DNA of 64,000 nt from Candidatus Uhrbacteria bacterium (lineage in GTDB: Bacteria; Patescibacteriota; Patescibacteriia; UBA9934). The notes beneath the pieces are model-generated. The model was not told the origin of the DNA, searched no databases, and saw nothing but the letters and a program-made list of their open reading frames with translations. Made by a program: the position numbers and the translations under genes. The stretch lies in contig CALRHD010000002.1 of assembly GCA_943359325.1 (NCBI GenBank), positions 4,629-68,628 of the forward strand, written 5' to 3'. The first letter of the stretch is position 1. The number at the start of each line of letters is the position of its first letter. This document shows positions 2,221-64,000 of the stretch, in pieces.

Positions 2221-2256
2221 GTGATGAGCCTTGTCCACGACTCAGTTGCGGACACC
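2221..2256 (+). repeat. REP-like palindromic element copy 1. It has the flank GTGATGAGCCTTG plus the hairpin GTCCACGAC-TCA-GTTGCGGAC, and the stop codon of the RAYT gene lies inside it.
   Basis: I read this directly. The same core of about 21 nt recurs at 3000, 4336, 17401, 33636, 42864 and 63902. It sits between the convergent recG and RAYT genes. Confidence 0.8.
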
Positions 2257-2880
2257 GCTCCATTCTCGCATAAACTTTTGGTAATCACTTTTTCCTTGAA
2301 ACAGATTACTGAGAATATCCATGCTGACGATAGGATCGTGTACCAGCATCAGATAGTGACTGTAGCTTGACCATGGATATGATGTGAGAAGTGCATTTGC
2401 GACATCCCAGTTTTCTATACCGCGAATCTTCCAGTCGGGGAGAAAGAGCTTGAGTGGATTGAAGTGGATATATCGCGAAATGTGTAGAAGCTGTGCGTCG
2501 CTTTTTATTGGCACAGCCTTATATTCACTTTCCCATAGCCGTCCCGTTCGCTCATTTTGACGATTAAAGTATTGAGCAAAACCAACACCCAACTTCTGCA
2601 TAAAGCGTGATACCCCATTGTCTGATACTTGTTTTAGGAGAAAATGGTAATGATTTGGCATGATCGCGTAACTCATAATTTTCACTAAAGGATTCTTGCT
2701 CGGTGATGGGCGGTGCTGGAGTCTGTGGAGAACGATTCTCCTGTCGCCCGTATCATTGAAGGCGAGCATACTGCGAATGAATCGTTCGCGATCGTTGTCG
2801 TTGCCATACGTCGATCGACGATCAACGCCGCGATTATATACATGATAGTAACCATCATTGACGATTTGTTCCTTGCGCAT
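2242..2880 (-). CDS. IS200/IS605-family HUH Y1 transposase, probably a REP-associated tyrosine transposase (RAYT, TnpA_REP)
   Basis: N-terminal GYYHVYNRG is followed by the HUH motif MPNHYHFLL and a C-terminal RLWESEY...YIHFNPLK with the catalytic Tyr region. There is no tnpB partner. It is flanked on both sides by REP-like hairpins. The start is taken at the Met of MRKEQIV, although the track ORF extends to 2985. Confidence 0.75.
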   Translation of the reverse strand: MRKEQIVNDGYYHVYNRGVDRRSTYGNDNDRERFIRSMLAFNDTGDRRIVLHRLQHRPSPSKNPLVKIMSYAIMPNHYHFLLKQVSDNGVSRFMQKLGVGFAQYFNRQNERTGRLWESEYKAVPIKSDAQLLHISRYIHFNPLKLFLPDWKIRGIENWDVANALLTSYPWSSYSHYLMLVHDPIVSMDILSNLFQGKSDYQKFMREWSGVRN

Positions 2881-2987
2881 AAAAAAGATGTTAAACAGTA
2901 AATAAAAATCTCCCAATGCGCTCATCATAATAGATGAACGTAGGGAGTACGTATTCATTTTCCTGCGAAGCACGACGGACGTCAAGT

Positions 2988-3022
2988 GTGGATAAGTTTG
3001 TCCACGACTCAGTTGCGGACAT
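2988..3022 (+). repeat. REP-like palindromic element copy 2 (GTGGATAAGTTTG-GTCCACGACTCAGTTGCGGAC-AT)
   Basis: Read directly. It lies between the RAYT start and the radA stop, in the same orientation as copy 1. Confidence 0.85.
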
Positions 3023-4299
3023 TACTTCAATAACTGATCGATTGTCTTGATCGTTTTTGGCGTAATGGCGTTTTTGAGTCCGAGGCGTTCGGCCTCTTTG
3101 AGGCGGCGTTCGAGGTGGGGAACGGTGCGTACTTCGCCGCCGAGGCCGAGTTCGCCAAAAATAACCGTGTCGTCAGGGATTATTTTGTTTGACATTGCCG
3201 ACATGATCGCTGCGGCAACTGCAAGGTCAGCCGCCTTTTCTTTGACCTGCATGCCACCGACGACGTTGAGGTAGACATCTTGATCACCAACTTTGACGCC
3301 CGCACGTTTATTCACAATCGCGAGGAGCATTTGTAGCCGACTCGCGTCGTAGCCAGACGTGCGGCGCACAGGGTTTGGGAAAAGGCTGCGATCGATGAGT
3401 GCTTGAATTTCGACGAGAAACGGGCGTGAACCTTCCATGATGCAGGTGACAACAGACCCAGGGCAGGGGATGCGTTCGGCGAGAAATCGTGCTGAGGGAT
3501 TTTCTACTGTTACCATGCCATGTTCGGTCATTTCGAATACACCGACGTCGTCCGTTGCACCAAAACGATTTTTGCTACAGCGCAAAATGCGGTACGCCGT
3601 GTCGGCATCGCCTTCGAGTGTGAGAAGTGTGTCAACGAGGTGCTCGAGCGTTTTTGGCCCTGCGATTGACCCCTCTTTTGTGACTTGTCCGATGATGAGC
3701 ACGGGCACATTCGCAGTTTTTGCGTAGCTGATGAGTTCGCTCGTTGCCGCACGGACCGCTGTCGGCGTCCCCGGAAATGCATCGGCGTCCTCGACCATCA
3801 TTGTTTGTATAGAGTCAACAATGAGAATGCTCGGTGACATGGTTTTCGCTGCGGCAATAATACTGCCGATTTCGACGGCTCCCGAAAACACAATTGATTG
3901 CATACCAATACCGAGGCGTTCAAATCGCATACGCACTTGCCCCTCGCTTTCTTCGCCAGAGACGTAGTATGAAGGCGTCGACGACGACATTGCCACAGCA
4001 ATCTGCGCGACGAGCGTCGACTTTCCAATACCTGGTTCGCCTGCCAACAAAACAACAGCACCTGGAACAATGCCGCCACCGAGCACGCGGTCGAGTTCAG
4101 CAATATCTGTGGGGCGGTGAGTAATTTTGGTGAAGTTGGTGTTGTCGAGCGCGATCATCGCTGCGGGTGCAGCTTTTGCAGATGAAGTTTGGCGACCCGG
4201 CGTCGTACCACCTTCTGCAATAGTTCCCCAATTTCCGCATTCGGTGCAACGCCCCTGCCATTTGTTAAATTGACTGTCGCACTTGGTACAAGAAAACAT
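3022..4299 (-). CDS. radA: DNA repair protein RadA/Sms
   Basis: N-terminal C4 zinc finger (CTKC...CTEC) is followed by the Walker A motif GEPGIGKST and the KNRFG motif. The C-terminus is a Lon-protease-like domain. Confidence 0.9.
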   Translation of the reverse strand: MFSCTKCDSQFNKWQGRCTECGNWGTIAEGGTTPGRQTSSAKAAPAAMIALDNTNFTKITHRPTDIAELDRVLGGGIVPGAVVLLAGEPGIGKSTLVAQIAVAMSSSTPSYYVSGEESEGQVRMRFERLGIGMQSIVFSGAVEIGSIIAAAKTMSPSILIVDSIQTMMVEDADAFPGTPTAVRAATSELISYAKTANVPVLIIGQVTKEGSIAGPKTLEHLVDTLLTLEGDADTAYRILRCSKNRFGATDDVGVFEMTEHGMVTVENPSARFLAERIPCPGSVVTCIMEGSRPFLVEIQALIDRSLFPNPVRRTSGYDASRLQMLLAIVNKRAGVKVGDQDVYLNVVGGMQVKEKAADLAVAAAIMSAMSNKIIPDDTVIFGELGLGGEVRTVPHLERRLKEAERLGLKNAITPKTIKTIDQLLK

Positions 4300-4320
4300 A
4301 TTTTACGCCCCCTTCACACT

Positions 4321-4356
4321 GTGGATAACTATGTCCTCGACTCAGTTGAGGACACT
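4321..4356 (+). repeat. REP-like element copy 3. It is a variant, GTCCTCGAC-TCA-GTTGAGGAC, in which both stem arms have changed in a compensatory way.
   Basis: Read directly. The flank GTGGATAACTATG is conserved and the stem carries an A>T change paired with a C>A change. It lies between the radA start and the stop of ORF 4355..5812. Confidence 0.8.
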
Positions 4357-5812: not shown

Positions 5813-6456
5813 GGTGTGTGGGCTAGCGCGGAGCGAATTGCTCCTTCGATTTCCGATGCACTTACGGCGCCCGTGAAGCGCTCGTTGTTTATGAATATCG
5901 TTGGTGTTGCGGTTATTTGGAGTGTGATGCCTTCGTCGTAGCTTTTTTCAATGAGTGGGAGCGTTTCTTGTTTTTCGGTGCAACGGTTAAACGTGCGTTC
6001 GTTGAGCTTCAGCGATTGCGCGATGGACGTGTAGAGTTCACTCCCAAGTGACGCTTGGTTTGCAAAGAGGTACGAGTGGTACGGGAAAAATGCGTCTTGT
6101 TTTCCTGCGCAGCGCGCGGCTATTGCGGCGTTGAGTGCTTCAGGATGCACCGATGTGTTCGGCATGTCTTTCCACACTAATCGGATTTGATTTGGGAATT
6201 TTGCAATGACGTCGACAAGTGTATTTTCGACGTCTGCACAGGTGCCACATGAATAGTCGCCGAAGCTCACGATGGTGACAGGTGCATCGGCGGCGCCTAC
6301 ACTCGGGTCGGCAATGGTGACGGTTGGCGTGGTGATGAGTGTTGTGCTATCGGTAAATGTCACATGGTCGCCACTACCGAGCGAGAATATGAAGAATACA
6401 AAAATGATTGTGGCGACGAACACGATGGCGATAATTGCGTGCCAAAAATAGCGCAT
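5809..6456 (-). CDS. Membrane-anchored DsbA-like thiol:disulfide oxidoreductase of the thioredoxin fold
   Basis: It has an N-terminal transmembrane helix and a C-x-x-C active site (SCGTCADVEN). The size and layout fit the DsbA/BdbD family. It is translationally coupled to the Cys-rich secreted protein downstream. Confidence 0.55.
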   Translation of the reverse strand: MRYFWHAIIAIVFVATIIFVFFIFSLGSGDHVTFTDSTTLITTPTVTIADPSVGAADAPVTIVSFGDYSCGTCADVENTLVDVIAKFPNQIRLVWKDMPNTSVHPEALNAAIAARCAGKQDAFFPYHSYLFANQASLGSELYTSIAQSLKLNERTFNRCTEKQETLPLIEKSYDEGITLQITATPTIFINNERFTGAVSASEIEGAIRSALAHTP

Positions 6457-8496: not shown

Positions 8497-10989
8497 TTTT
8501 ACACGTTTTTTGTGCATGCGCGTTACGCGGAATATTCCATTGCTTTCCGTGACGACAACCTCGCGCGGTAGTTTTGATGTGGTAAGCATGAGGTCGGCAA
8601 TGGGGTGTTCGATGTGTTCTTCAATGATGCGACGAACGTCACGAGCACCGTATTTTTCGGTGACGGTGTGCGCAACGGCGTTGGCGATGTGTTTCGTGGC
8701 GCACAATGTGACGCCAAGTGTGGCAAGGCGTTTCGCAGTATCGGCAAGCGCGATGCGTGCGATGAGGGTGAAGTCATCGAATTCGAGTGGGCGGAATAGG
8801 CAGGTGTGGTCGATACGATTGAGAAGCTCGGGGCGGAAATGGTCTTCGAGGAGCAAACGAATATCGTCGCGGAATTGCGCACTCGATACGGTTTGGTCGC
8901 TCACAAAACCGAGGCCATGTTGGTGGAAGCGTTCGCGCCCTGCATTTGTGGTCATGACGATAACTGCATTGCGGAAAGAGACGCTGCGCCCCGTTGCGTC
9001 GGTCAATACGCCGTCGTCAAGAATTTGGAGGAGCAAGTTATGGACGTCGCCATGTGCTTTTTCGAGTTCATCGAAGAGAATAACCGAGTGAGGGCGTGCG
9101 AGAACGGCATCGGTGAGTTTTGCGCCTTCGCGAAACCCGACGTAGCCCGCAGGAGAGCCGATGAGTTTGCTCACGGAAAAACTTTCTCCGAATTCGGACA
9201 TGTCGAAACGCACGAGCGCGTTCGGGTCGTCGAAGACTTCGGCAGCAATCGCGCGTGCAAGTTCGGTTTTTCCCACGCCCGATGGCCCGACGAAGAGGAA
9301 CGACGCGAGCGGACGTTTGGGCTGCGCCAATCCGAGGCGGGCGCGTTGCAGTGCTGCGGCAACACGAGTCACGGCGTCGTGTTGACCAACAACGCGCGCC
9401 GAAAGTCGCTCGGCAAGCGTACGGAGTGCGGCGGATTCATTCGCGGAAAGTCGTGACACGGGAATGCCGGTCATGTGTGCGACGGCAGCATTGATACGTG
9501 CACGGTCGAGCACAAGCGGTGCGCTCGTTGGTGCCTGTTTCTTGAGCGCGCCGTGTTCTTTTCGGAGTGCAGTCTCTTCGGTTTTGCAGGCAAGTGCTTC
9601 GGAAAAGCGTTCTTCAAAAACGGCCGCAGCTTTTCGCATGCGCAGTGTGTCGAGACATGCGGCAATGTCACGAAGTTGTGCGGCATGTTGCGCATGGCGT
9701 TTACCGTACACTGCTGCCGATCCTGCTTCATCTAAAATGTCGATTGCCTTGTCGGGAAAATGTTTTCCGTGCATGTAGCGTTCAGAAAGTGTGAGCGCAG
9801 CCTCGATCGCGTCTTTCGTAAAACGTACGCCGTGGTACTTTTCGTATGCGGGCTGAATGCCAAAAAGTATCGTGCGCGTTTCGGCGAGTGTTGGTTCGTT
9901 GACGGTAATTTTTTGGAATCGTCGTTCGAGCGCAGCGTCGGGTTCTATTTCTTTTTTATATTCGGCAGGCGTTGTTGCGCCAATGCAGCGCAATTCACCA
10001 CGCGCAAGTGCAGGCTTCAAAATGTTTGCCGCGTCGAGCGATCCCGATGCCGCGCCTGCACCAACCACGGTATGCATTTCGTCGATAAACAAAACGATGT
10101 CGGGATGATCGTAGATTTCGTCCAAGATATGCTGGAGTCGCTGCTCAAAGTCGCCACGATACATCGTTCCCGCGACAAGTGTCGCCATATCGAGGCGGAA
10201 AATGCGTTTGTTTTTGAGCGCGTCAGGAACCTTACCGTCGACGATTGCTTTTGCAAGCCCTTCCACGATCGCGGTTTTACCAACGCCTGTTTCGCCTACA
10301 AGCACAGGATTATTTTTTGTTCGACGTAACAAAACGTGCGCAAGCCGTGCGACTTCGTGTTCGCGACCAATGAGCGGGTCGATGCGTGCGGCTACTTCGC
10401 GTGTCGTTAGTTCGGTTGTAAAAAAGTCGAGCGCAGGAGTTTTCTTCGTTTCCACGTTGCACTCTTTGCATTCGGTGTCGTCGGAGTGCGTGTGCGGTGT
10501 GGTTTCTTCGTCGACGTGAACGTTCGGGAACGACGTCGTCGTGCGAAACACCGCCTGCAAATTTTGTACGAGATTTCTTTCGCGTATGCCGCTGTCGTGG
10601 AAAAATGCACGGATATTTTTCTGTGCGAGCTGCAAAAGTCCTGCGAGCAAGTGTTCGGTGCCGACGTGGTGGTGTTCGTGCATGCTTGCCGTCAACACCG
10701 CTTTTTCTATCGCGGTTTTCGCGTCATTCGACAGGAGCGGCGTTTTGTCATTTACGGTGAGTGGAGAAAATGAAGTCTTTCCTGCAGCCACTTTTGCGAA
10801 TATACGCAATGCCTCTTCCTTCACTCCCGCCTTTGCAAGAACCTCCGCGCCAATACTGCCGCGTTCCGTGCCAAGCGACCACAATAATTCTCGCAGCCCG
10901 ATTTCTTCGCCGCCATGCTCCACGACAAGACACAACGCTCGTGTGAGCACACTTTTTAAGTGCGATGTAAATTTATCCGTCAATTCCAT
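8485..10989 (-). CDS. clpC: Clp/Hsp100 ATPase (ClpC-type ATP-binding chaperone subunit)
   Basis: Clp_N repeats are followed by two AAA+ modules. The Walker A motifs are [14 protein letters not shown] and [15 protein letters not shown], and the signature [10 protein letters not shown] is present. The start is at the Met of MELTDKF, although the track ORF starts at 11070. Confidence 0.85.
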
Positions 10990-11078: not shown

Positions 11079-11840
11079 ATGTCTATTCGCGGGAAAAAAC
11101 TTGTTGCGTTTGATCTTGATGGCACACTCACGGAAAGTAAGATGCCGATGGACGCCGAGATGGCGGACCTGCTTGACCAATTGTTGCACCATGTGATGGT
11201 CGCAATTATTTCAGGAGGTGCGTACATGCAGTTTGAGCGCCAACTTGCAGTTTTGAAATCTGGACCAGAAGAATTGCGAAAACTTTTTTTCTTTCCTACG
11301 ACCGGTACACGGTTTTTTCGTTACGAAAATGACTGGAAACAGATTTATGCAGATGAGCTGACGGAAGATGAACGTACGAAAATTAAAGATGCGTTCGAAA
11401 AGGCGTTTGTCGACGTACATTATGCGCATCCGAAAAAAGTATACGGCGAGGTTGTCGAAGATAGAGGAACACAGATAACGTTTTCCGCCGTTGGTCAAGA
11501 TGCGCCAATCGAGGCAAAGAAATTATGGAAGGCGACGCAGGATCGGCGTGCAGAAATTGTGCAGGCGCTTGAAAAATATATTCCTGATTTTGAAGTCAAG
11601 ATGCCCGGGCTTTCGTCGATTGATGTCACACGAAAAGGGGTGGATAAAGCCTACGGGATTCAGAAAATTGAGGAACTCCTTGGTGTGGTCGTACCGGAGA
11701 TAGTGTTTGTTGGTGATGCGTTGTACGAGGGCGGGAATGATCATGCGGTTATTCGGACCGGTGTCGAGACTGTTGCGGTGGAGAATGCAGAAGAAACAAA
11801 AATGTTGTTGCGCGGGTGGCTCGCTGAATTTACTGCATAG
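11079..11840 (+). CDS. HAD-superfamily hydrolase (Cof/IIB-like)
   Basis: Motif I is DLDGTLT. The C-terminal GDALYEGGNDHAV matches HAD motif IV. Confidence 0.6.
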   Translation: MSIRGKKLVAFDLDGTLTESKMPMDAEMADLLDQLLHHVMVAIISGGAYMQFERQLAVLKSGPEELRKLFFFPTTGTRFFRYENDWKQIYADELTEDERTKIKDAFEKAFVDVHYAHPKKVYGEVVEDRGTQITFSAVGQDAPIEAKKLWKATQDRRAEIVQALEKYIPDFEVKMPGLSSIDVTRKGVDKAYGIQKIEELLGVVVPEIVFVGDALYEGGNDHAVIRTGVETVAVENAEETKMLLRGWLAEFTA

Positions 11841-11883: not shown

Positions 11884-12375
11884 ATGGCTTCTGATCTCAC
11901 AAAACAGGATCTCATTGATGCACTTCGTGGTTTGGCCACGAAAGAAGATCTGCTTCGATTTGCTACGAAGCAGGATCTTTTGGCGATACGTGAGGAAATG
12001 GCGACGAGTTTTTCATCGGTTCGTGAGGAAATGGAGACGAGTTTTTCATCGGTTCGTGAGGAAATGGAGAAAAATCACGGTGAGGTGCTGCAAATCATCA
12101 ACACGCTTTCGTCAAGTACCGATGCGGGATTTGCTCATATGCATGAAGTTATGGCGACGAAAGAGTATGTGGATAAACGTATCACCCAGTCCGAGCACGC
12201 AATAAAAGATTTTGTAGATCGTCGTGCGAGCAAAATCGAAGATGAACTCTCTGCTCCGCTAAGGGCGGTCGACGAGAAAGACACCGCACTCATCACGCAT
12301 CTCGGTAATAAAAAAGTTATTGCAAAGCCCGACGTTGCGGCTATCGTCGCGCTGTCTCCATTTGCCGCACGGTAG
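11884..12375 (+). CDS. Hypothetical coiled-coil protein with an internal tandem repeat
   Basis: A 36-nt in-frame repeat encodes SVREEMETSF twice. A TAGAAT -10-like hexamer lies about 10 nt upstream of the ATG and there is no Shine-Dalgarno sequence. Confidence 0.45.
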   Translation: MASDLTKQDLIDALRGLATKEDLLRFATKQDLLAIREEMATSFSSVREEMETSFSSVREEMEKNHGEVLQIINTLSSSTDAGFAHMHEVMATKEYVDKRITQSEHAIKDFVDRRASKIEDELSAPLRAVDEKDTALITHLGNKKVIAKPDVAAIVALSPFAAR

Positions 12376-14685: not shown

Positions 14686-17061
14686 ATGAATAATTTCGCT
14701 TCCTACAATTGGCTGAAAGAATATTGTAAAACGACATTGTCGCCAGAGGATTTTAGTAGTGAGATAAGTTTGCGTTCGATGTCGGTCGAAAAAGTTGACC
14801 ATGTGAGTGAGCGTTTTGCACACATCATCGTCGGCTTGGTGAACGAGGTGCGCCCGCATCCCAATGCTGACAAATTGCGGATTGCAACGGTGAGTATGGG
14901 GAGCGCGGCAGTGGAAATCGTGTGCGGCGGCACGAATCTTGTAGAGGGAATGAAGGTCGCACTTGCGCTTCCAGGATCGACGGTCATCGGCCACGATGGG
15001 CAACGTGTGACGCTCGCCGTGAACACGATTCGTGGCGTAGAAAGTCCGGGAATGTTGTGCGGGCCTGACGAACTTGGTTTTGGTGCCCTTAAAAAAGGCG
15101 CACATGAAATTTGGGATTTAGGTGCGGTGACCGATGCAAAGGCGGGTACGCCACTCGCCGAGGCGCTCGGCATCGACGACGTCATGTTCGATGTTGAGAT
15201 TACGACCAACCGCCCCGACGCAATGGGTATTGTGGGTTTGGCGCGCGAAGCAGGTGCGGCGTGTGGCGCACCGTTTGCATGGCAGCCACCCATTTTTCCT
15301 GTCGCTGCGAATGACATTCCGTTTACGGTCGCGATTGAAGACGCGTCGCGCTGTTTGCGTCAAATGGCGGTTGTCATCGACGGTGTCACGGTCGCACCAT
15401 CGCCATGGTGGCTGCAGGCACGACTGTTGTTGGCAGGTTTGCGACCGATTAACAACATTGTCGACATTACAAATTACGTCATGCTCGAGTACGCCCAACC
15501 GCTTCACGCATTTGATTATAAAAAATTGGATGGTGCAGAAATTCGCGTGCGGCAGGGAAGGGCGGGAGAAAAATTGGTTGCACTCAACGGGAAGGAATAT
15601 GACGTTGAGGGTGTGCTTGTGCTTGCCGATGCAGTGAAGCCGCTCGACATTGCGGGGATTATGGGAGGCGAGCATACAGGCACGACGTCAGAAACGACCA
15701 CCGTCGTACTTTCGGCGTCGGCGTTCGACCATGTGGCGCTTCGCCGAACGTCGCGTGCGCTTCATCTGCAAAGCGACGCGCAACTTTTGTTCGAAAAAGG
15801 TTTGTCGACGGAAGCGCCGCCGTTTGCGTTGGCTCGTGCCGTTGAACTTATTGCAAAAATTGCGGGCGGTCGCGTGGCGAGCCCCGTGTGCGATGAACGT
15901 GTTTCGCCGTATGTACCGATCGTGTTGACGTGCAACCCGCAAAAAATTCGTGAGCGTATTGGCATCGACATTTCCGACGTACGCATTCTAGAAATTTTGA
16001 CGCAACTTGGATTTGCCGTTGATCAATTGCATGGAGCGTGGAGTGTCATCGTTCCGTGGTGGCGCGATCATGATATTGAGGACGCGATCGATCTTTCTGA
16101 AGAAGTCGCGCGCATTTACGGTTATCACGAACTACCCGCAATACTCCCGAGTGGAGTTCCTCCTACAACACCTGAAGACGCAACACTTGTGTGGGAGCGT
16201 TGGTGTAAGCGGTTTTTTGCAGGTGCAGGGTACGACGAATTTTTCAGCAACTCGTTTGTGAGTGCTGACGACCTCGCGCGGTACGGTGAAGACGCTGCGC
16301 AGTCGTATGCATTGTTGAATCCGCTCGCAAGTGATTTGTCGCACATGCGAATGTCGCTCATGCCGTCGATATTGCGTGCGGTAGAGTCAAATCAAGGGCA
16401 TATCGCGTCGGCGAAGTTTTTCGAGTTGTCGCGTGTGTACATTCCTCACGGCAATGACATGCCCGAAGAGCGCATGCAGCTTGTGCTCGGCGAATATGGG
16501 CACGACGACGTGGAAAAAGCATTCATGCGTACGCGCGGCGTGCTCGATGTGTTTGCTGCGCGAACCGGTCTTTCGTTGACGCTGCTTCGCGACGAAACTG
16601 ATGCGCGGTGGCACCCTTCGCGCACGGCGAAAATTATGCACGGCGAGGTGTGTGTGGGGCGCATCGGAGAAATCGCTTTTGCAACGCAAATTGCATTCGG
16701 CATTAATCGGCGCGTTATGGTGCTCGCCCTCGACCTCGAGACACTTTTTTCGTCCATGCATCTCACGCATCGGTATGTTCCCGTGTCTGAATTCCCTTCT
16801 GTTGTTCGCGACCTTTCGATTATCCTCGACGAACGAGCGACGTTCGACGACATTGTGCGATGCGCGAAGAACGACATTGTTGCGAGCGCAGCACTTGTCG
16901 ATGTGTATCGCGGTGCGGGCGTTCCCGAAGGAAAAAAGAGCATGACGGTGTCATTCACCATGCAAGTAGAGAGAACGTTGACGTCAGAAGAAGCAGACAC
17001 CGCGCTCGCGGTGATTAGTGAGAAGCTTGTTTCCGAATTATCGGGTATACTCCGTTCATAA
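14686..17061 (+). CDS. pheT: Phenylalanine--tRNA ligase beta subunit
   Basis: The N-terminus is SYNWLKEY. The protein has the tRNA-binding (OB) domain, the B3/B4 domains and the C-terminal FDVY..K..S.T...T motif. The start is set at MNNFAS, downstream of the repeat. Confidence 0.9.
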   Translation: MNNFASYNWLKEYCKTTLSPEDFSSEISLRSMSVEKVDHVSERFAHIIVGLVNEVRPHPNADKLRIATVSMGSAAVEIVCGGTNLVEGMKVALALPGSTVIGHDGQRVTLAVNTIRGVESPGMLCGPDELGFGALKKGAHEIWDLGAVTDAKAGTPLAEALGIDDVMFDVEITTNRPDAMGIVGLAREAGAACGAPFAWQPPIFPVAANDIPFTVAIEDASRCLRQMAVVIDGVTVAPSPWWLQARLLLAGLRPINNIVDITNYVMLEYAQPLHAFDYKKLDGAEIRVRQGRAGEKLVALNGKEYDVEGVLVLADAVKPLDIAGIMGGEHTGTTSETTTVVLSASAFDHVALRRTSRALHLQSDAQLLFEKGLSTEAPPFALARAVELIAKIAGGRVASPVCDERVSPYVPIVLTCNPQKIRERIGIDISDVRILEILTQLGFAVDQLHGAWSVIVPWWRDHDIEDAIDLSEEVARIYGYHELPAILPSGVPPTTPEDATLVWERWCKRFFAGAGYDEFFSNSFVSADDLARYGEDAAQSYALLNPLASDLSHMRMSLMPSILRAVESNQGHIASAKFFELSRVYIPHGNDMPEERMQLVLGEYGHDDVEKAFMRTRGVLDVFAARTGLSLTLLRDETDARWHPSRTAKIMHGEVCVGRIGEIAFATQIAFGINRRVMVLALDLETLFSSMHLTHRYVPVSEFPSVVRDLSIILDERATFDDIVRCAKNDIVASAALVDVYRGAGVPEGKKSMTVSFTMQVERTLTSEEADTALAVISEKLVSELSGILRS

Positions 17062-17348: not shown

Positions 17349-17384
17349 AATCGCAGAATAAAAATCCGCTTTGTCAAGCAAAAA

Positions 17385-17421
17385 GTGGATAACTATGTCC
17401 ACGACTCAGTTGCGGACATAA
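17385..17421 (+). repeat. REP-like element copy 4 (GTGGATAACTATG-GTCCACGACTCAGTTGCGGAC-AT)
   Basis: Read directly. It lies immediately upstream of the dnaE start, and the track ORF translates it as a spurious MDNYVHDSVADI N-terminal extension. Confidence 0.85.
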
Positions 17422-17444: not shown

Positions 17445-20400
17445 ATGCGAGCGTATCGTCGTCGTATGGATCCGAAGAATTTTGTTTATCTCCACAATCA
17501 TTCGCATTACTCGCTTTTGGAGGCGCTGCCGAAGCCGAAAAGCCTCGTGAAACGCGCGAAAGAGCTGGGAATGTCGACATTGGCGTTGACGGACAACGGG
17601 GCGCTGTATGGTGCGGTCGAGTTTTTTAAGGCGTGTAAAGATGCCGAAATGAAGCCCATTCTTGGCATGGACACCTACGTTGCGCCGTACCGCATGACCG
17701 ATCGCCGACCGCGTGTCGACGAACGGGCGTTGCGACTCGTGCTCCTCGCCGAGAATGACGAAGGCTACCGTAATCTTCTTCGTATTACGACTGCGGGGTT
17801 TCTTGATGGTTTTTATTACAAGCCGCGCGTTGACAAAGAATTTTTGCGGGAGCATGCACGGGGGTTGATTGCACTTTCGGGGAGTGTGAGCAACGACATC
17901 GCCTTGGCGCTCCTATCCGATGACGTCGACAAAGCGAAGATGCTTGTTGCGAGCTATCAAGATATTTTTGGAAAAGAAAATTTTTATCTTGAACTCATTC
18001 ACCACCCCGACATGCAGCGCCAGCTTGAGGTGAACGAGGCATACAAAAAATTATCGGCGGAAACAGGTGTACCGCTTGTGGCAACACGCAACGTATTTTA
18101 CCTCGACCCCGATGACCGCGAGGGGTATGAGGCGCAGTTGTGCATTATGCGTGGAAGGACGCTCGAAGAATTTCGTCGCACGTCTACCGACGACGTTGAC
18201 TTGTCGTTTGGTACGCCCGAGGAGATTTGCACATATTTTGCCGACGTTCCCGACGCGCTCGAAAATACTGCGAAGATCGCCGAGCGGTGCACGTTTACCA
18301 TGGAGCTTGGAAAAAACTTTCTTCCTGTCTTTCCGCTTCCTCCGGGAAAAACGGACAATGAATATTTTCATGAGTTGTGTATCGCGGGTTTGAAGGAGCG
18401 TTACGCCGACCCCATTCCTGTCGACGTCATGGAGCGATTCGATTTTGAGTACGCGACTATTGAAAAGATGGGATTTGCATCGTACTTTCTTATCGTGCAG
18501 GACTACATCAATTGGGCAAAAAACAACGGCGTGCTCGTAGGGCCCGGCCGTGGAAGTGCAGCGGGAAGTATTGTGGCGTATGCGCTACGCATTACCGACA
18601 TCGAGCCGTTACGTTATGGATTGCTTTTTGAGCGGTTTCTTAACCCCGACCGTGCGTCGCTCCCTGACATTGACACCGACTTTGCCGACCGCGGCCGTGG
18701 AAAAGTCCTCGAATACATCGCACAAAAATACGGCGCTGACCATTGTGCAGGCATTATCACGTTTGGAACCCTCATGCCTCGTGCTGCGGTTCGCGACGCC
18801 GCGCGTGTGCTCGGCCTCACGTTTCAAGAGGCCGACGTTATTGCAAAGGCTGTACCGCCGCCTGTGCAAGGGCGCCACACGCCACTCAAAGAGGCGATTG
18901 TGGAGTCGCCCGACTTGCGGCGTATTGTTGACGGTGACCCGATCGCGCGACGCGTTGTCGACCTCGCCATGAAGCTTGAGGGCAACCCTCGCCACGCCTC
19001 GCAGCACGCATGCGGCATTGTGATTGGTGACAAGCCGCTTGTTGAGCGTGTGCCCCTCCAGAAAGGTCAACATGAAGACATGGCGTTCATTACGCAATAT
19101 TCGCTTAATTCCGCCGAGGCTGCGGGTCTCGTGAAGATGGACTTTCTCGGATTGTCGAACCTCACCGTCATTGAAGACGCACTCGAAATTGTGCGCGCCG
19201 TTCACGGTGTCACTATCGACATCGAGAATGTTCCGTTAGACGACAAAAAAACATTTGCGCTTCTCGGCCGTGGTGATACGACGGGCGTATTTCAGCTGGA
19301 AAGTGATGGCATGAAGCGCTACATTCGCGACCTGAAGCCGACGATGTTTGAAGACATTATTGCAATGGTGTCGCTGTATCGCCCAGGGCCAATGCAGTTT
19401 ATTGAAAGTTTTATTAGTCGCAAACATGGCCGTGAAGCGGTTGCGTACGAACACCCACTTATGGAACGGGCGTTTAAAGAAACGTACGGTATTCCCGTAT
19501 ATCAAGAGCAGGTCATGCAGGTGAGCAAAGACGTTGCAGGTTTTACGGGCGGTGAAGCAGACACGCTTCGTAAGGCGATGGGAAAAAAGATTGCCGAGCT
19601 CATGGCGAAGATGAAAACAAAATTTATCGACGGCGCAGTGAAAAACGGCGTGCGCGCAACTGTTGCAGAAAAGATTTTTCAAAAGTTGGAAGACTTTGCC
19701 GCATATGGGTTCAATAAGTCTCATGCTGCGTGCTATGCAATGATTGCGTACCGCACGGCGTATCTCAAGGCCTACTACCCGGCAGAATTCATGTGTGCCC
19801 TCATGAATAGTGATTCGGGTAATCTCGATCGTATTACTATCGAAGTTGCTGAATGTAGTCGTATGGGGCACGTGGTGTTACCGCCTGACGTCAACGAATC
19901 ATTCCCTGGATTTGCTGTGGTACCGGATACAAAAAACATTCGTTGGGGTTTGCAAGCGATTAAAAATGTCGGCACAGAGATTGCAGAGATTATCGTTCGT
20001 GAGCGTAAGCAAGGCGGAGAGTTTGTCGACCTTCCCGATTTTTTGGGGCGCATCCATGCAAACACATTTAACAAAAAAACGCTTGAGGCGCTTATAAAAA
20101 CCGGTGCGCTCGATCGTTTTGACGACCGTGCAAAACTTTTCACGAACCTTGACCAGCTGCTGTTGTACAACAAGCACATCAACGCATCACGTGAACAAAA
20201 CCAAGTGACACTTTTCGATCTTTCGCCAACGATGGTGACGGAGAAGATTGTGTTGCGCCCGTCCGAAAATATTTCACGGAGCACCATACTTGGGTGGGAA
20301 AAAGAATTACTGGGCTTGTATGTCAGTATGCATCCTGGAGTTCTTTTTGCCGATGCATTTTTGGGTCGTGTCAAAACATGCGCGGAAATTGCTACAATGG

Positions 20401-31754: not shown

Positions 31755-33614
31755 TTGACCGACGGGGTAAGGCGGGTAAGATGCCGATGTATGACAAATG
31801 CATCGCGGTATAGAAAACTTGAGTCGAGCGATCGCAAGGCGACGTTTGCCGTTGCGAACGGTAGCGAAGAAACGCGGCAAGTAGCGTACGGAGACGGCGA
31901 CATGTTGCCGTACCGTTCGTTCGTAGCCGAAGAGGCGTTTTCGCTTGTTGAGCCGTATATTTTGTCGCCCGAGAGCAACATCACTGCCCTCAACATGCAG
32001 AAATTGAGTGGCGTTGCAGGTGCCATGCTTGCACGTCAAAGTCGCATTCAGGGTACTGTCGTTGACGTACTCATGAAGGAATTTTTGGTGACCAGCCCAG
32101 ACGAAGCGGTTGAGTTGGGCGTCGAGATTGGTGATTTGAAACGCGCAAAGCTCGACGGGATTATTGAGCGCATTCTTATTCAGTACGGCGATGACTCGGT
32201 GCAGGAGCTCGAAACCGCAACTGTGCTTTTTAATTCCGTAAGCAATCTTGCGACGAAAGTCATTGAAGACCGTCGGCTTGGTGGGTACATCGAACAGTCG
32301 AGTCGGTATGTGTACTACACGGATCGCGACCCTGTCACAGGACGATGGTGGTATGTGCGCGAGCCGCGGATTATGGCGAGCCGTTTGGGTGGGAGCTATG
32401 TCGTGCTCATGGACAAAGCGTTCGATGTGTATGCCCGGCTTGCAGACGCGTTGACTGCACACTACGAAATCATCAAACCCGTTGACGGCGCGGAATACGC
32501 CGTGCGGCCGAACGATGCAACGAAATATCGGTTGGCGGATTTAACAGACGAAAAAGAAATCAAAGAATTCAAGCGCGTCTATAAGTTTGACCTGAAAACA
32601 AAAGCGTGCGACACGGCGCGCATCGTGTTGCCTGCGTCGACATTGACGAATGTGGCAATGGTTGCGAACGGCCGCACGTTTGAGCATTTGCTCAAGCGAC
32701 TCTACGCAACCGATAATGCAGAGTTTCAGGACATCGCGGAACGGTTACACGCAACGCTCAATAAAGTTATTCCGAAGTATGTGAAGCGTGCGTCGAAAAA
32801 CGGCGAGGCGTACACGAAGGGCGTTGACGCACGAACCGTGACGCAAATTGCGCGCGAATTTCCCGAATTGCTGCAGTTCGTCCGATCGAAGAGCGAAGTT
32901 GAGTGGGTCATAGACCCTGAGTCAGATCGAAGAGTCGAAGAGGTTGTGCAATATTTGGCGACAACGTATTACCCGTTTTGTCGTGTATCGTTCGCAACGA
33001 TCATTTCGACGCTTGCTGCGTGTCCGTACGAACGTCTTGTGTCGCTCGTCAAAGAAATTATCGGCGAGCGCATGACGCGTCGCGATAGGCTCGGTCGTGG
33101 GTTTGAAGCGGGTTATCCGTTTACGTTCGACATTACGGGGAACTTTGGAATTTTTCGTGATTTGCATCGGCATCGTATGCTCACGCAGCAGCGTCAACTG
33201 CTGAACCCACATATTGGTTTTACGGTGCCGCAAGATGTGGAGGACATTGGCATGGGCGACGAAGTGCGAAGCTTGGAGGCAGAAATTCGCGGCTTGTACG
33301 ACGAGCTCGCCAACGAAGTGAGCCACGAGGCGGCGCAGTACTGCGTGTTGTTTGGGCACCATATTCGTTTTACGATGGGCTTTAATTTGCGTGAAGCGCA
33401 GCACTTCCTCGAACTTCGCACTGTGCCGCAGGGGCACCCAGACTACCGTCGCGTGTGCCAAACGATGCACAACATGATCATTCGTCGTACGCCATGGCTT
33501 CATGACACCGGGATTTTTACATTCGTCGATCACAATGACTACCCTTGGAGCCGCGCCGACGCCGAAGCCCGTCAATCGCAAAAACGCATCGCAAAGGGGT
33601 TGACGGAGGAGTAA
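31755..33614 (+). CDS. thyX: FAD-dependent thymidylate synthase ThyX with a tandem duplicated domain, in which the N-terminal copy is degenerate
   Basis: The C-terminal half carries the ThyX signature FRDLHRHRMLTQQRQ. The N-terminal half has a degenerate equivalent, IEDRRLGGYIEQSSRYV. The start is uncertain: Met1, Met13 or Met50. Confidence 0.6.
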   Translation: MTDGVRRVRCRCMTNASRYRKLESSDRKATFAVANGSEETRQVAYGDGDMLPYRSFVAEEAFSLVEPYILSPESNITALNMQKLSGVAGAMLARQSRIQGTVVDVLMKEFLVTSPDEAVELGVEIGDLKRAKLDGIIERILIQYGDDSVQELETATVLFNSVSNLATKVIEDRRLGGYIEQSSRYVYYTDRDPVTGRWWYVREPRIMASRLGGSYVVLMDKAFDVYARLADALTAHYEIIKPVDGAEYAVRPNDATKYRLADLTDEKEIKEFKRVYKFDLKTKACDTARIVLPASTLTNVAMVANGRTFEHLLKRLYATDNAEFQDIAERLHATLNKVIPKYVKRASKNGEAYTKGVDARTVTQIAREFPELLQFVRSKSEVEWVIDPESDRRVEEVVQYLATTYYPFCRVSFATIISTLAACPYERLVSLVKEIIGERMTRRDRLGRGFEAGYPFTFDITGNFGIFRDLHRHRMLTQQRQLLNPHIGFTVPQDVEDIGMGDEVRSLEAEIRGLYDELANEVSHEAAQYCVLFGHHIRFTMGFNLREAQHFLELRTVPQGHPDYRRVCQTMHNMIIRRTPWLHDTGIFTFVDHNDYPWSRADAEARQSQKRIAKGLTEE

Positions 33615-33622
33615 TGAAGTTT

Positions 33623-33656
33623 GTGGATAACTATGTCCACGACTCAGTTGCGGACA
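33623..33656 (+). repeat. REP-like element copy 5 (GTGGATAACTATG-GTCCACGACTCAGTTGCGGAC-AT)
   Basis: Read directly. It fills the whole convergent spacer between the thyX stop and the dcd stop. Confidence 0.85.
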
Positions 33657-34769
33657 TCACATCTTAAAGTGTTTGCTGAGCCGTGGACCACGTTGCCGAT
33701 AGTAGTTTGAGGCAAGTTTGGCGTCGCCGTAGAGAAGTTCGGCGGGGGCGGCGAGGCGTTCGTAGATCATTTTGCAGATGGGTTGGCCGTCGCGCAGCAC
33801 GAAGTCGATGTCGTGGGTGAAAATTTCGAGAACACCCGGCGTGCCACGTATGGCACCTTCTGCACCATACCCAAATCCAGGGTCGAAAAACCCTGCGTAG
33901 TGCGAACGAAATTCGCCTTTGCTCGGGTCGTACGCAGCCATTTCTGCGGCGTACCCGTCGGGAACGCGAAGACATTCTTTTGTTGCGAAGATGTAGAAAT
34001 CTCCTCGGCGCATCATAAATTGGCCGTTCTTTGGGCGCATGATAGGTTCAAAGAATTCTGCAGGGTCATAATCGCGTTTTGCAAAGTCGAGCACGCGACA
34101 CGCGGTCGGGGAGCTTGAGTACCCAATTATGTCTTCGCTTGAAAGGTCAACAGACATCACCACACCGTCTTTGTCGACTGTAGCGCGATCGGCACGATAG
34201 GCGTTTCCCGCAAGGTCGCAGAGCAATTGCGACTGGTCGACGAGTCGGAAATGGTCGGCGTCAGAAAGCCGCGCGTCGCACGTGGCAAAACGCATCTGAT
34301 TGACTCGCTCTCCTGCATCGAGCTTCACAGGAAATGATTTTGGAATAACTTCGAGCCATAACTCGCCCTTGTATCCGCTTGGCACCATGTCGAATCGTGA
34401 AACACCGTCAATGAGAAGACGTGTTTGCAAATTGATACGGCCGGAGGACGACTTGTTGTTTGTGTATGCGTGGACAGCGTCGGGGAGCGACAGCATTTCG
34501 TTTAGCCGCACCAAATAAATGCCGAACAGCTCGAGGGGGTGCTGTAAGTCGCAGCGATACAGCATACCGTCTTTGATAAGTTCGCGAATTGTTTCGCCAC
34601 GGCGTGGAAGAAACGTACCCCGCATGCGGTATACTTCTCCCGAGAGCGACAGGTCGAGTGACGACGGCTGAAGGTGCTCAGTTTTCGCGCCATGAATGTG
34701 CCCCTCGGCCATGAGGGTACGGATATATTGGAGGGGAAGTGCGCCACGAACGTCGATCCAGTTGGTCAT
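33657..34769 (-). CDS. dcd: 2'-deoxycytidine 5'-triphosphate deaminase (long DCD form with a tandem dUTPase-like fold)
   Basis: The motif SSLDLSLSGEV is typical of the dCTP deaminase/dUTPase fold. The roughly 370-aa length matches the DCD (PF06559-type) family. Confidence 0.6.
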   Translation of the reverse strand: MTNWIDVRGALPLQYIRTLMAEGHIHGAKTEHLQPSSLDLSLSGEVYRMRGTFLPRRGETIRELIKDGMLYRCDLQHPLELFGIYLVRLNEMLSLPDAVHAYTNNKSSSGRINLQTRLLIDGVSRFDMVPSGYKGELWLEVIPKSFPVKLDAGERVNQMRFATCDARLSDADHFRLVDQSQLLCDLAGNAYRADRATVDKDGVVMSVDLSSEDIIGYSSSPTACRVLDFAKRDYDPAEFFEPIMRPKNGQFMMRRGDFYIFATKECLRVPDGYAAEMAAYDPSKGEFRSHYAGFFDPGFGYGAEGAIRGTPGVLEIFTHDIDFVLRDGQPICKMIYERLAAPAELLYGDAKLASNYYRQRGPRLSKHFKM

Positions 34770-34818: not shown

Positions 34819-35334
34819 ATGATAATTATGCACATCACGATTCTTGCCGCCATGAGCGCTGACGGCCGTATTGCAACGAGCCGTGACGAGCTCGTTGACT
34901 GGACAAGTCCGGAAGACAAGCAGTTTTTTGTATTAAAAACAAAGGAGGCAGGCGTCGTCGTTATGGGGCGTCGCACATTTGAAACGCTCGGCGAACCATT
35001 GTCGGAGCGCCTGAACGTCGTCATGTCGCACCAGCAAGCATTGTTTCCTGACGTTCCTGGAGTCGTTGAATGTACAAGCGAATCGCCGCACGGTGTGGTG
35101 CACTCGCTCGAATCTCGCGGGTATATGAAGGCAGTCGTTATTGGCGGCCACGAAATTTATTCTGCGTTTCTTTCGGCAGACTTGGTGACGGATATGTATC
35201 TCACTATCGAACCACGTATTTTTGGCGACGGCGTTCCGTTCGTTGAGGGGATCGCAGCAAAAAAATTGCAGCTGATGTCTGCAGAAAAACTTGGTGGGCA
35301 GTCGGTGCTGTTGCACTACGTTGCGCTTTCATGA
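34819..35334 (+). CDS. Dihydrofolate reductase-like (RibD C-terminal/DHFR family) protein
   Basis: The motifs ILAAMSADGRIA, FFVLKTKEAGVVVMGRRTFE and VIGGHEIYSAFL fit a DHFR-like NADPH-binding fold. Confidence 0.55.
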   Translation: MIIMHITILAAMSADGRIATSRDELVDWTSPEDKQFFVLKTKEAGVVVMGRRTFETLGEPLSERLNVVMSHQQALFPDVPGVVECTSESPHGVVHSLESRGYMKAVVIGGHEIYSAFLSADLVTDMYLTIEPRIFGDGVPFVEGIAAKKLQLMSAEKLGGQSVLLHYVALS

Positions 35335-36552
35335 CTGATCGTTCGTGGATGACTTGTGAAAAATAAGTGTGTTGCCAATCACGGGAAGTATTTCGATAAT
35401 CGTGCCGTCGATTTCCGTTCCTCCAGACGTTCCGTCGGACCAAACGAGTGCGTTCACATCCATACCAAGTGCGGAAAGTTCCGTTTCTGAAGGGAGCGCC
35501 GCAGACATGGAATCGGATTGTAGCGCGCTTGCGCGAACAGTCTGAACGTGGAGTGCGTAGGGTGTTGTCGTTCCTGCAGGAATAGTTTCGGCTGTGGTGA
35601 GTGTCGCAGAAAGAAAAGCAACATCGTCTCTGTTTGGTGTGCATGCGTTGCCATTTGCGCGATATGCAACCCATGTTGCGGGGACTTCCGTGTTCGTAAG
35701 CGTGTTCACAAGTTTGAAATTGCTTGTATCCGCGCCGAGCGTTTTGCAGGTATTCCACACGGTGCCCGCATTATCGGTTGTGGTGAGAGAAAAGACGACG
35801 CTGTTAAACGTGATGTCGCCCGCCGCTTCAGCAGTTGCGTCGACGCGGAGCACCTCAAGAAAACTCGGTTCAACGTAACCCATCGGCGAAAGTGTCGACA
35901 GGGTGAGTGTCGGCTTTGTGTTGCGGAGTGTCATGCCGTTTGCGGCGTAGTTTTTGTTGACGTCCGTCTGTGTAATGACTCTTCCTGAAAACAGCGTTGC
36001 CGAAAATTCTTTTGTGCGCGCATTGATTGCTACCTGGAATTGCATGCCGGACGTTACCGCTGTGTCGTCGATTGCGGCAGTTGAAATATTGACGTCGACG
36101 GTTGCCGTGAGGCTATGCGCGACAAGAAGTGAAAGGTCAGAAAACGTCAGCGACCCGTCGACGAATACACCCGTGACCACCTGCGTGTTGCCGTTGCTGC
36201 TCGTTGCAGTAAGCGTGACGAGTGGTGCAACAAGGTCGGAACCGAGTGCCTCTGTACCGTCGATGCAATCGCCATCGCTATCTTTTGGTGTTGCGACACA
36301 ATTGTGCAGCGTGAGCGTGTGGATAGTCATGTCTTCACGACCGCCACGAAAAGTGAAGTGTGCAACGTGAACGTCGGGTTGGCTGTCGAGTATGATTGCG
36401 GCTTGTGGGCTGTCTACAGCAGAGACGCTAAAAAAGGGAAGCGGCGTTGCAGCACGTGATGGCTGCGTGAGCGTGACGGCGCTCATGGTGCCGATCGCGA
36501 GTCCCATTGCGCTGAACACCATTGCGGCATGAAAGTGAAAGTGGCGGTGCAT
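35329..36552 (-). CDS. Secreted Thr/Ser-rich beta-rich protein (putative surface protein)
   Basis: It has a signal peptide after a His-rich N-terminus, then low-complexity T/S/V/A beta-strand repeats. Confidence 0.45.
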   Translation of the reverse strand: MHRHFHFHAAMVFSAMGLAIGTMSAVTLTQPSRAATPLPFFSVSAVDSPQAAIILDSQPDVHVAHFTFRGGREDMTIHTLTLHNCVATPKDSDGDCIDGTEALGSDLVAPLVTLTATSSNGNTQVVTGVFVDGSLTFSDLSLLVAHSLTATVDVNISTAAIDDTAVTSGMQFQVAINARTKEFSATLFSGRVITQTDVNKNYAANGMTLRNTKPTLTLSTLSPMGYVEPSFLEVLRVDATAEAAGDITFNSVVFSLTTTDNAGTVWNTCKTLGADTSNFKLVNTLTNTEVPATWVAYRANGNACTPNRDDVAFLSATLTTAETIPAGTTTPYALHVQTVRASALQSDSMSAALPSETELSALGMDVNALVWSDGTSGGTEIDGTIIEILPVIGNTLIFHKSSTNDQS

Positions 36553-42850: not shown

Positions 42851-42852
42851 CT

Positions 42853-42886
42853 ATGGATAACTCTGTCCACGACTCAGTCGTGGACA
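42853..42886 (+). repeat. REP-like element copy 6. It is a perfect-palindrome variant, GTCCACGAC-TCA-GTCGTGGAC, with the flank ATGGATAACTCTG.
   Basis: Read directly. It lies between the two permease genes. Confidence 0.85.
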
Positions 42887-42896
42887 GATAGTATTT

Positions 42897-63885: not shown

Positions 63886-63923
63886 GTGGGGATAAGTATG
63901 TCCACGACTGAGTCGTGGACATA
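63886..63923 (+). repeat. REP-like element copy 7 (GTGGGGATAAGTATG-GTCCACGAC-TGA-GTCGTGGAC-AT), a perfect palindrome with an inverted loop
   Basis: Read directly. It lies in the lexA upstream region. Confidence 0.85.
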
Positions 63924-64000
63924 CTTGCACAAGAGATTCTTCGTCGCGTAGAGTAGGGGCACAAACATAAAAGCTGTATGCTAAAAATCGTCGAAGCGCC

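Follow-up and report, generated by a model that had tools for sequence, protein, structure and literature searches.

A probable REP-RAYT system in a Patescibacteria genome, with a hairpin repeat in small intergenic spacers and on both sides of a Y1/HUH nuclease gene between radA and recG

Most of the known systems that combine repetitive extragenic palindromic (REP) sequences with REP-associated tyrosine transposases (RAYTs) come from Proteobacteria and a small number of other phyla. Our point of comparison is the REPtron of Escherichia coli with its REPs and TnpAREP (RayT, YafM; subclass 2.2 of Quentin et al., group 2 of Bertels). There, a Y1 gene of the HUH (histidine-hydrophobe-histidine) type, present once and inherited vertically, has on its flanks short palindromes (~35-40 nt) that are imperfect and intergenic and bear a conserved tag on the 5' side of the hairpin foot. 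A similar arrangement is found in a stretch of 64,000 nucleotides from Candidatus Uhrbacteria (GenBank assembly GCA_943359325.1, contig CALRHD010000002.1, positions 4,629 to 68,628), which we refer to as the window: a hairpin repeat sits in tiny intergenic spacers, and two direct copies of it bracket a single RAYT-like gene between radA and recG. We consider it probable that this is a REP-RAYT system of a Patescibacteria genome, in which a non-autonomous repeat has spread into the spacers while the RAYT-like gene was inherited vertically. The Y1 nuclease gene between the two copies is most likely what spreads the repeat. In the literature searched, we found no REP-RAYT system described from Patescibacteria (Candidate Phyla Radiation, CPR). 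The system would differ from those described in host phylum, protein subclass, its 9-nt DnaA-box-like tag, its single hairpins and its direct flanking copies.

An earlier reading of the same sequence (the original prediction) had reported seven hairpin copies, and these are real. The core GTCCNCGAC-TSA-GTYGNGGAC occurs seven times in the window compared to 0.06 occurrences expected by chance in shuffled sequences (core starts at 2233, 3000, 4333, 17397, 33635, 42865 and 63900; the positions first given were off by 0-4 nt). A profile built from the seven copies retrieved exactly those seven in the window with nhmmer, each with its best score on the + strand. All of them are intergenic; their spacers measure 24-151 bp, and, as had been noted before, several copies adjoin a stop codon. 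Additionally, sequence was read beyond the window (10 kb to the right and 4.6 kb to the left). The total over these 78 kb is 10 copies, all intergenic, which agrees with the definition of a REP as an imperfect repeated palindrome of 20-40 nt.

The REP unit of ~37 nt is composed of the 5' tag TGTGGATAA, 1-3 nt, and an imperfect hairpin with a stem of 10-12 bp and the 3-nt loop TCA; the full order is TGTGGATAA, C or G, a stem of up to 12 bp (TATGTCCACGAC), the loop TCA and the 3' arm. The stems had been described correctly. In four window copies the arms are the commonest, GTCCACGAC/GTTGCGGAC, in which pair 5 is an A.C mismatch and pair 7 a G.T, and this imperfect form is also that of both RAYT-flanking copies. 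In copy 4333, pair 5 is T-A with both sides altered and the G.T at pair 7 kept, and the 9-bp palindromes of copies 42865 and 63900 are perfect, with TCA and TGA as their respective loops. The folding energy of the commonest form as single-stranded DNA is weak (-4.8 kcal/mol, z = -1.6), compared to -13.3 and -15.1 kcal/mol for the perfect variants. The flank GTGGATAA, said to accompany all seven copies, is exact in four, has one mismatch in two (42865, ATGGATAA; 63900, GGGGATAA) and is absent in 2233. Scans against Rfam and for tRNAs gave no match, the repeat scan of GTDB representative genomes returned only single chance matches in unrelated taxa, and that of viral contigs returned none. The size and architecture of the repeat, the lack of partner genes or a T-run, and the presence of the Y1 gene led us to reject other identities (integron attC site, CRISPR repeat, terminator, parS- or matS-like site).

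Related sequences are also found outside the REP units. The octamer GTGGATAA occurs at 11640-11647 and 12169-12176 (+), inside open reading frames (ORFs) and without a hairpin, and all six of its occurrences in the window are on the + strand. A weak half-REP-like sequence, TGTGGATAG TCATGTCTTCACGAC (tag and 5' arm without the 3' arm), lies at 36318-36341 within the ORF 35329-36552 (-); with an nhmmer E-value of 0.3, it may be due to chance.

The RAYT-like gene (2242..2928, - strand; P0001) is called with 228 aa, and its true start is probably the ATG at 2880-2878 (MRKEQ...). REP copies 2233 and 3000 lie on either side of it, and its TGA stop codon is formed, on the - strand, by the loop of the former. 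The ORF matches Pfam Y1_Tnp (1.7e-9), and its best NCBIfam model is REP_Tyr_transpos (NF047646; 51.9 bits, E = 7e-14). The HUH motif N92-H93-Y94-H95 is encoded at 2655-2644, and the catalytic tyrosine Y153 (codon 2472-2470) is part of YIHFNP (residues 153-158). The motifs YHVYNRG (YH..NRG), NHYH (NHxH) and YIHFNP (YIHxN) are invariant in 38 homologues, and a Y1 HUH core with HuH motif and a Y---NP tyrosine motif places the protein in class 2 of the TnpAY1 nucleases. The predicted fold is closest to 4er8, the E. coli TnpAREP bound to its REP, which is thus the nearest solved structure. One RAYT copy is present in the 78 kb, and the bracketing by hairpins that characterizes a REPtron is found likewise in five relatives and in most of 80 metagenome loci. 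Compared to E. coli, the protein is longer (~212-228 aa with a 70-aa WSSY tail versus 165 aa), its motifs are NHYH and YIHFNP rather than DHLH and YIHYNP, and the host belongs to the Patescibacteria.

By its motifs, the protein resembles TnpAY1 subclass 2.1 (Bertels RAYT group 1/TIRYT): it has NH[YF]H, W[EQ]/FQ, Y[IV]HLNP and the SS tail motif and lies near the median length of 238 aa, an assignment by motif comparison. Subclass 2.1 was reported to be without REP-like sequences nearby (Quentin et al. 2018, PMC6006769), whereas hairpins flank the gene in most loci here. We also noticed a likeness to subclass 2.4 RAYTs of Cyanobacteria and Bacteroidetes, since many metagenome relatives carry copies of their own hairpin inside the RAYT ORF, and REPs inserted within tnpAREP have been described for subclass 2.4; unlike in subclass 2.4, the window's RAYT gene has no internal REP copy detectable with the nhmmer profile, and motifs and tag differ.

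The order RadA-RAYT-RecG recurs in five other lineages (L015/L016, L097, L098, L100/L101 and L102/L103), with RAYT proteins that are 56-63% identical and with one hairpin upstream and one at the 3' end of each RAYT gene. On the RAYT sense strand, the upstream hairpin reads TGTCCGCAAC-TGA-GTCGTGGACA in the window, TGTAGGAAAC-TGA-GTTTCCTACA in L097, TGTGGGCGCC-TGA-AGCGCCCACA in L100, TGGCCGCGCC-TGA-GGCGCG-CCA in L102 and TGGCCGCGCC-TGA-GGCGCGGCCA in L015; in L098, its 5' end is lost at the contig start (..AGAAAC-TGA-GTTTCTTACA), and the downstream copy reads TGTAAGAAAC. After each upstream hairpin come TTATCCACA, with the variants TTATGCACA and TTGTCCACA, and a -35-like TTGAC(G/A), in this order. 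The stems differ among the orthologous cassettes, and the loop and the 5' tag TGTGGATAA are kept. In the alignment of these hairpins, 99% of the cells are paired compared to 72% in shuffles (reached by 0 of 500), 7 of 10 pairs are altered on both sides, and the covariation score is 0.751 compared to 0.239 in shuffles (0/500; slid controls ≤0.195). To judge from these alignments, selection for stem pairing across species is clear.

Stem covariation had been proposed as a check within the genome, where it fails to exceed the control. For the 10 copies, 86.7% of the cells are paired versus 84.7% in shuffles. In two pairs of the 12-bp stem, both sides are altered, namely pair 5 of copy 4333 and an outer pair of copy 42865 (A-T to C-G); 86 of 500 shuffles reach this number, and the commonest form contains the A.C mismatch. 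The stem changes of the copies had been called compensatory, and within this genome they are indistinguishable from chance. Here the case is weak, and it is the comparison between species that argues convincingly for a conserved structure.

We give about even chances to an explanation of the within-genome differences by mutation bias and subfamily structure (template switching in a quasi-palindrome, or gene conversion) rather than by selection for pairing. Copies 42865 and 63900 are altered at both of the imperfect positions, each time on the 3' arm, which thereby complements the 5' arm exactly. In copy 63900, moreover, the loop is inverted to TGA and the tag orientation is kept, as expected if the template was switched through the loop. 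These features suggest a template switch inside a quasi-palindrome. The variants also fall into few shared types (GTCGTGGAC twice, GTTGTGGAC in the single copy 73037, and GTTGTGAAC in 71152, one change away), and the shuffle control was not exceeded. A single switch explains neither copy 4333, which altered both sides of pair 5 yet kept the G.T at pair 7, nor the outer pair of copy 42865, altered on both sides; and across species the signature of pairing selection is evident. E. coli TnpAREP needs the GTAG tag and a stem mismatch, and perfecting the palindrome abolishes binding and cleavage (PMC3333891). The commonest form here shares such a stem mismatch. Given this requirement in E. coli, the perfect stems of copies 42865 and 63900 may be a sign of inactivity, not of 'repair'.

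Copy 4333 also provides evidence on the mobility of the repeat. The pilin-RadA spacer that contains it measures 55 bp in the window (the REP and 18 nt), whereas it is 3-32 bp long and REP-free in L015, L097, L100 and L102. Since the spacer of the relatives is short and REP-free, copy 4333 is a lineage-specific insertion, and the REP has thus moved.

The RAYT cassette itself appears to have been inherited vertically, given its synteny in six lineages at 56-63% identity. It has also been gained or lost, as it is absent in the close relative L108 (RadA 81% identical), where a perfect 30-bp palindrome at 6321-6350 fills the RadA-RecG spacer. Such an absence is also expected if the cassette is an insertion sequence of the IS200/IS605 type, whose left- and right-end hairpins lie on one strand and whose solo ends or PATE-like (palindrome-associated transposable element) derivatives would be the dispersed copies. 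We consider this very unlikely. The cassette does resemble IS200/IS605 elements (IS608, ISDra2) in its Y1/HUH fold and in the direct, one-strand hairpins at both gene ends, and another relative, L104, has a classical IS200-type TnpA (11339-11827; DEDHVH, YVRNQ) adjoining radA. A further likeness lies in the leader of the RAYT gene, where a 5' untranslated region (5'-UTR) stem-loop (2910..2947, - strand; CTCCC...GGGAG) pairs the Shine-Dalgarno-like GGGAG before the MRK start; in IS200, a 5'-UTR hairpin occludes the ribosome binding site in a similar way. This stem-loop is kept in six sequences, with no changes on both sides, and may have a control role. The gene, however, occupies one syntenic site in six lineages despite the divergence of the protein, which argues that it has long been unmoved, and it is neither multi-copy nor mobile in the sampled clade. 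Its motifs NHYH and YIHFNP (class 2, Y---NP) are not the DH[VI]H and Y[IV]ENQ of IS200, it encodes 212-228 aa rather than ~150 aa, and the NCBIfam model transpos_IS200 matches with only E = 0.054. No tnpB accompanies it, and the dispersed units are single 37-nt hairpins instead of paired left and right ends.

Two observations on L015 concern its hairpins. At 9848-9870, a relic of the L097/L098-type hairpin (AGAAAC-TGA-GTTTCT, with the decayed tag GTTACATC) lies beside the current GGCCGCGCC hairpin upstream of RAYT, which suggests that one REP type replaced another at this cassette. A second repeated hairpin family, GCGGGGGATGGGACCCCCGC, occurs in both orientations at 3679-3709, 16986-17012 and 17535-17561 and is unrelated to the RAYT-flanking hairpin.

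The REP-RAYT interpretation of the window is carried by the association of repeat and gene, the intact catalytic motifs, the TnpAREP-like fold, the covarying stems with kept loop and tag, and the lineage-specific insertion. By analogy with E. coli TnpAREP and the TnpA of IS200/IS605, the nuclease would bind the folded hairpin on single-stranded DNA, read the tag 5' of the hairpin foot, and cut and rejoin the DNA through an HUH-bound metal and the catalytic tyrosine, so that the repeat would be mobilized or copied. Structure-specific REP binding and cleavage are suggested by the predicted structural similarity to the TnpAREP-REP complex 4er8. Activity may be timed to the lagging-strand template, and RAYT might be controlled by the tag-adjacent promoter and the 5'-UTR hairpin. 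The original prediction of a single-stranded hairpin recognized by a Y1 transposase was thus right in kind, and the Y1 gene between the copies, the TnpAREP-like fold and the covarying cassettes speak for it; the reasons first given, strand polarity and within-genome covariation, hold up poorly.

Several observations weigh against this interpretation. The census comprises 10 copies, limited to 78 kb of the genome, and most other sampled lineages have few copies away from the RAYT gene. A GT[AG]G tag is absent at the hairpin foot, where the bases are ATAA(C/G) or (C/G)TA, although TGTGGATAA contains GTGG 6-7 nt away from it; the tag is this 9-mer, unlike the GTAG of E. coli. Also unlike E. coli, the window copies are single hairpins that form no doublet of the REPIN (REP doublet forming a hairpin) or BIME (bacterial interspersed mosaic element) kind and have no nearby inverted partner. 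No two copies in the window are closer than 2233 and 3000, which lie 767 bp from each other on either side of the RAYT gene; these two flanking copies are direct, not inverted. The 51.9 bits of the REP_Tyr_transpos match fall under the curated cutoff of 80 bits. Finally, we know of no biochemical activity for this Y1 protein family.

The orientation of the copies had been described as uniform, which is true within the window (7 of 7 on the + strand) and does not extend beyond it. L013 continues the same contig population (1 mismatch over a 10.8-kb overlap), and its next 10 kb hold three more full copies at the window-equivalent positions 69036 (-), 71152 (+) and 73037 (-), while the 4.6 kb to the left of the window contain no copies. 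The total is 8:2 (two-sided binomial P ~0.11), or 6:2 without the two RAYT-flanking copies. A comparison with GC skew had been suggested as a check: over the next 10 kb the skew is still +0.06 to +0.19 even though two copies are flipped, and strict one-strand polarity is therefore refuted. Given the positive skew of the window (~ +0.10 throughout, at a G+C content of 51.5%), the + strand is the G-rich strand and would be the lagging-strand template for a fork moving from left to right. A bias toward the lagging-strand template is possible. Such a preference is known for IS200/IS605 (PMC6006769, PMC3333891), and action on single-stranded DNA at this template is a plausible shared feature.

The individual copies occupy varied gene contexts. 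Copy 1 (2232..2254, +) is a hairpin only, TGTCCACGAC-TCA-GTTGCGGACA, without the 5' tag, and overlaps the last RAYT codons (TGA stop at 2242-2244). Copy 2 (2987..3021, +) lies upstream of the RAYT gene with its tag TGTGGATAA at 2987-2995 and its hairpin at 2999-3021, and abuts the RadA stop codon (3022-3024). Copy 3 (4320..4356, +), the site on which the original prediction was placed, has the tag and the hairpin with the T-A pair 5 and fills the pilin-RadA spacer. Copy 4 (17384..17420, +; tag AGTGGATAA, 12-bp stem) lies between two + genes upstream of dnaE, and copy 5 (33622..33658, +) fills the 42-bp spacer of the convergent thyX-like and dcd genes. Copy 6 (42852..42888, +) has the tag TATGGATAA and a perfect 12-bp stem, in which the outer A-T to C-G change is present on both sides (TCT...AGA). 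Copy 7 (63887..63926, +) carries the tag TGGGGATAA, and its perfect stem measures at least 14 bp (15 by eye); it lies in the divergent lexA/metK spacer and has the inverted loop TGA.

These positions are relevant to the explanation that the hairpins are host RNA elements (3'-end stabilizers, terminators or processing sites) with a secondary association to RAYT, which we regard as unlikely. Most copies follow directly after stop codons, between convergent or tandem genes, and E. coli REPs are credited with roles in mRNA turnover (PMC3479197). No T-run follows the hairpins, no Rfam family matched, one copy lies in a divergent promoter spacer and another in front of the RAYT gene, and an RNA role of the conserved DNA tag is not evident. 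The transcribed version is also mixed with respect to gene direction, as tandem + genes hold both + and - copies and tandem - genes hold + copies, so that copy orientation is unrelated to transcription.

The tag TGTGGATAA is the reverse complement of TTATCCACA and matches TT[AT]TNCACA, quoted as the high-affinity DnaA-box consensus in PMC6006769. The match, one of sequence only, extends over 9 of 9 positions in 5 of the 10 copies and in the orthologous cassettes. The exact 9-mer was counted 39 times in ~617 kb of related loci, versus 4.6 expected, and within 30 nt of RAYT-flanking hairpins the degenerate DnaA consensus shows an 8-fold enrichment (17 in 14.2 kb versus 89 in 603 kb, Poisson P = 1e-10; 15 of 80 loci). 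In the simplest reading, the 9-mer would be this family's counterpart of GTAG, read by the nuclease.

Alternatively, and compatible with a REP-RAYT system, the tag could be a working DnaA box, with DnaA or a DnaA-like protein binding double-stranded TTATCCACA beside the palindrome. Such binding could regulate the RAYT promoter that the tag abuts, help hairpin extrusion or make the REPs DnaA-titrating sites. The candidate promoter (2957..2985, - strand) has a -35 TTGACG at 2985-2980, a 17-nt spacer and a -10 GAAAAT at 2962-2957 and directly adjoins the tag; the pattern TTGAC(G/A)-17 nt-xxxAAT/xxGAT is kept in six relatives, which is consistent with a promoter function, and there too the tag directly abuts the conserved -35-like element. 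Beyond the exact reverse complementarity to the consensus, the 9-mer is kept and enriched beside RAYT hairpins in many lineages with unrelated stems, and where it varies near these hairpins, the change is mostly at position 3 or 5, which are the positions that are degenerate in the DnaA consensus. Tandem tag pairs accompany a hairpin in L027, L033 and L041 (e.g., GTGGATAAtgTGTGGATAA), there 3' of the hairpin, so that the tag is found on either side. Some subclass 2.1 Y1 proteins have a Bac_DnaA_C-like tail, without DnaA boxes nearby (PMC6006769), an echo of the DnaA-box-like tag here. Unlike in these members, however, no helix-turn-helix or DnaA_C-like domain was found in this family by Pfam on 38 members, by a C-terminal tail profile against PDB sequences or by a fold search. 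The position 5' of the hairpin foot is that of the canonical GTAG tag, which RAYT itself reads, and 4 of the 9 tagged copies in the genome have mismatches at non-degenerate box positions. The consensus is that of the literature, and the box of this organism's own origin may differ; the positional argument is built on few, post hoc observations. Taken together, we find a working DnaA box doubtful.

A different hairpin of terminator-like form, CAAAAAGCGCGAC-TTTC-GCCGCGCTTTTTG, has TGTGGATAG immediately before it at the window-equivalent position ~72753 (-, in L013), and because of this the tag is not tied to one stem type in the genome.

If the DnaA-box reading were true, doubtful as it is, a widespread Patescibacteria RAYT-REP family would have recruited the binding site of the initiator. 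RAYT expression, hairpin extrusion or REP mobility would then be tied to DnaA and the replication cycle, DnaA-titrating sites would be scattered through very small genomes, and the DnaA_C-like tails of some related Y1 proteins of subclass 2.1, so far unexplained, would gain a function. A 9-nt tag identical to the DnaA consensus offers a concrete, testable link between a domesticated single-stranded DNA nuclease and the replication initiator.

The probable REP-RAYT system of the window belongs to a wider family. In a metagenome scan, at least 567 stretches encode a RAYT relative. We analyzed the best 80 loci (RAYT identity 31-43%), and in the majority of them the RAYT gene has lineage-specific hairpins with 3-nt loops on either side. 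A perfect stem of at least 8 bp was detected in 53-58% of the RAYT flanks of these 80 loci, compared to 2.6% of control windows and 1.3% of shuffles. Direct and inverted arrangements of the flanking hairpins both occur. Copies of the own-lineage hairpin lie inside the RAYT reading frame in L017, L023, L031, L046, L054, L061, L076, L079, L085 and L093. The other lineages have perfect-palindrome stems and few dispersed copies, so that copy orientation relative to GC skew is not reliably callable, and the orientation of their RAYT genes relative to skew is mixed (17 positive, 10 negative). A large family of CPR Y1 nucleases is flanked by lineage-specific hairpins in a consistent manner; its motifs fit a subclass reported to lack REPs. 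At least one lineage has a very compact genome through which the hairpin has spread. The orthologous cassettes represent a natural series for the joint change of RAYT and hairpin.

Genes of the window include recG, radA, a type IV secretion system (T4SS)-pilin-like gene, dnaE, thyX, dcd and lexA. The nearest named relatives of its RadA are from a 'Patescibacteria group bacterium' (80% identity) and Candidatus Uhrbacteria (61-68%). The thyX-like ORF (31755-33614, +) is listed with 619 aa from a TTG start and has two matched Thy1 stretches; it may be a duplicated or fused ThyX or an over-extended ORF. About 2.7 kb to the left of the window, near the contig end (L011 14253-15581), lies a large serine recombinase gene with Resolvase, Recombinase and Zn_ribbon_recom domains.

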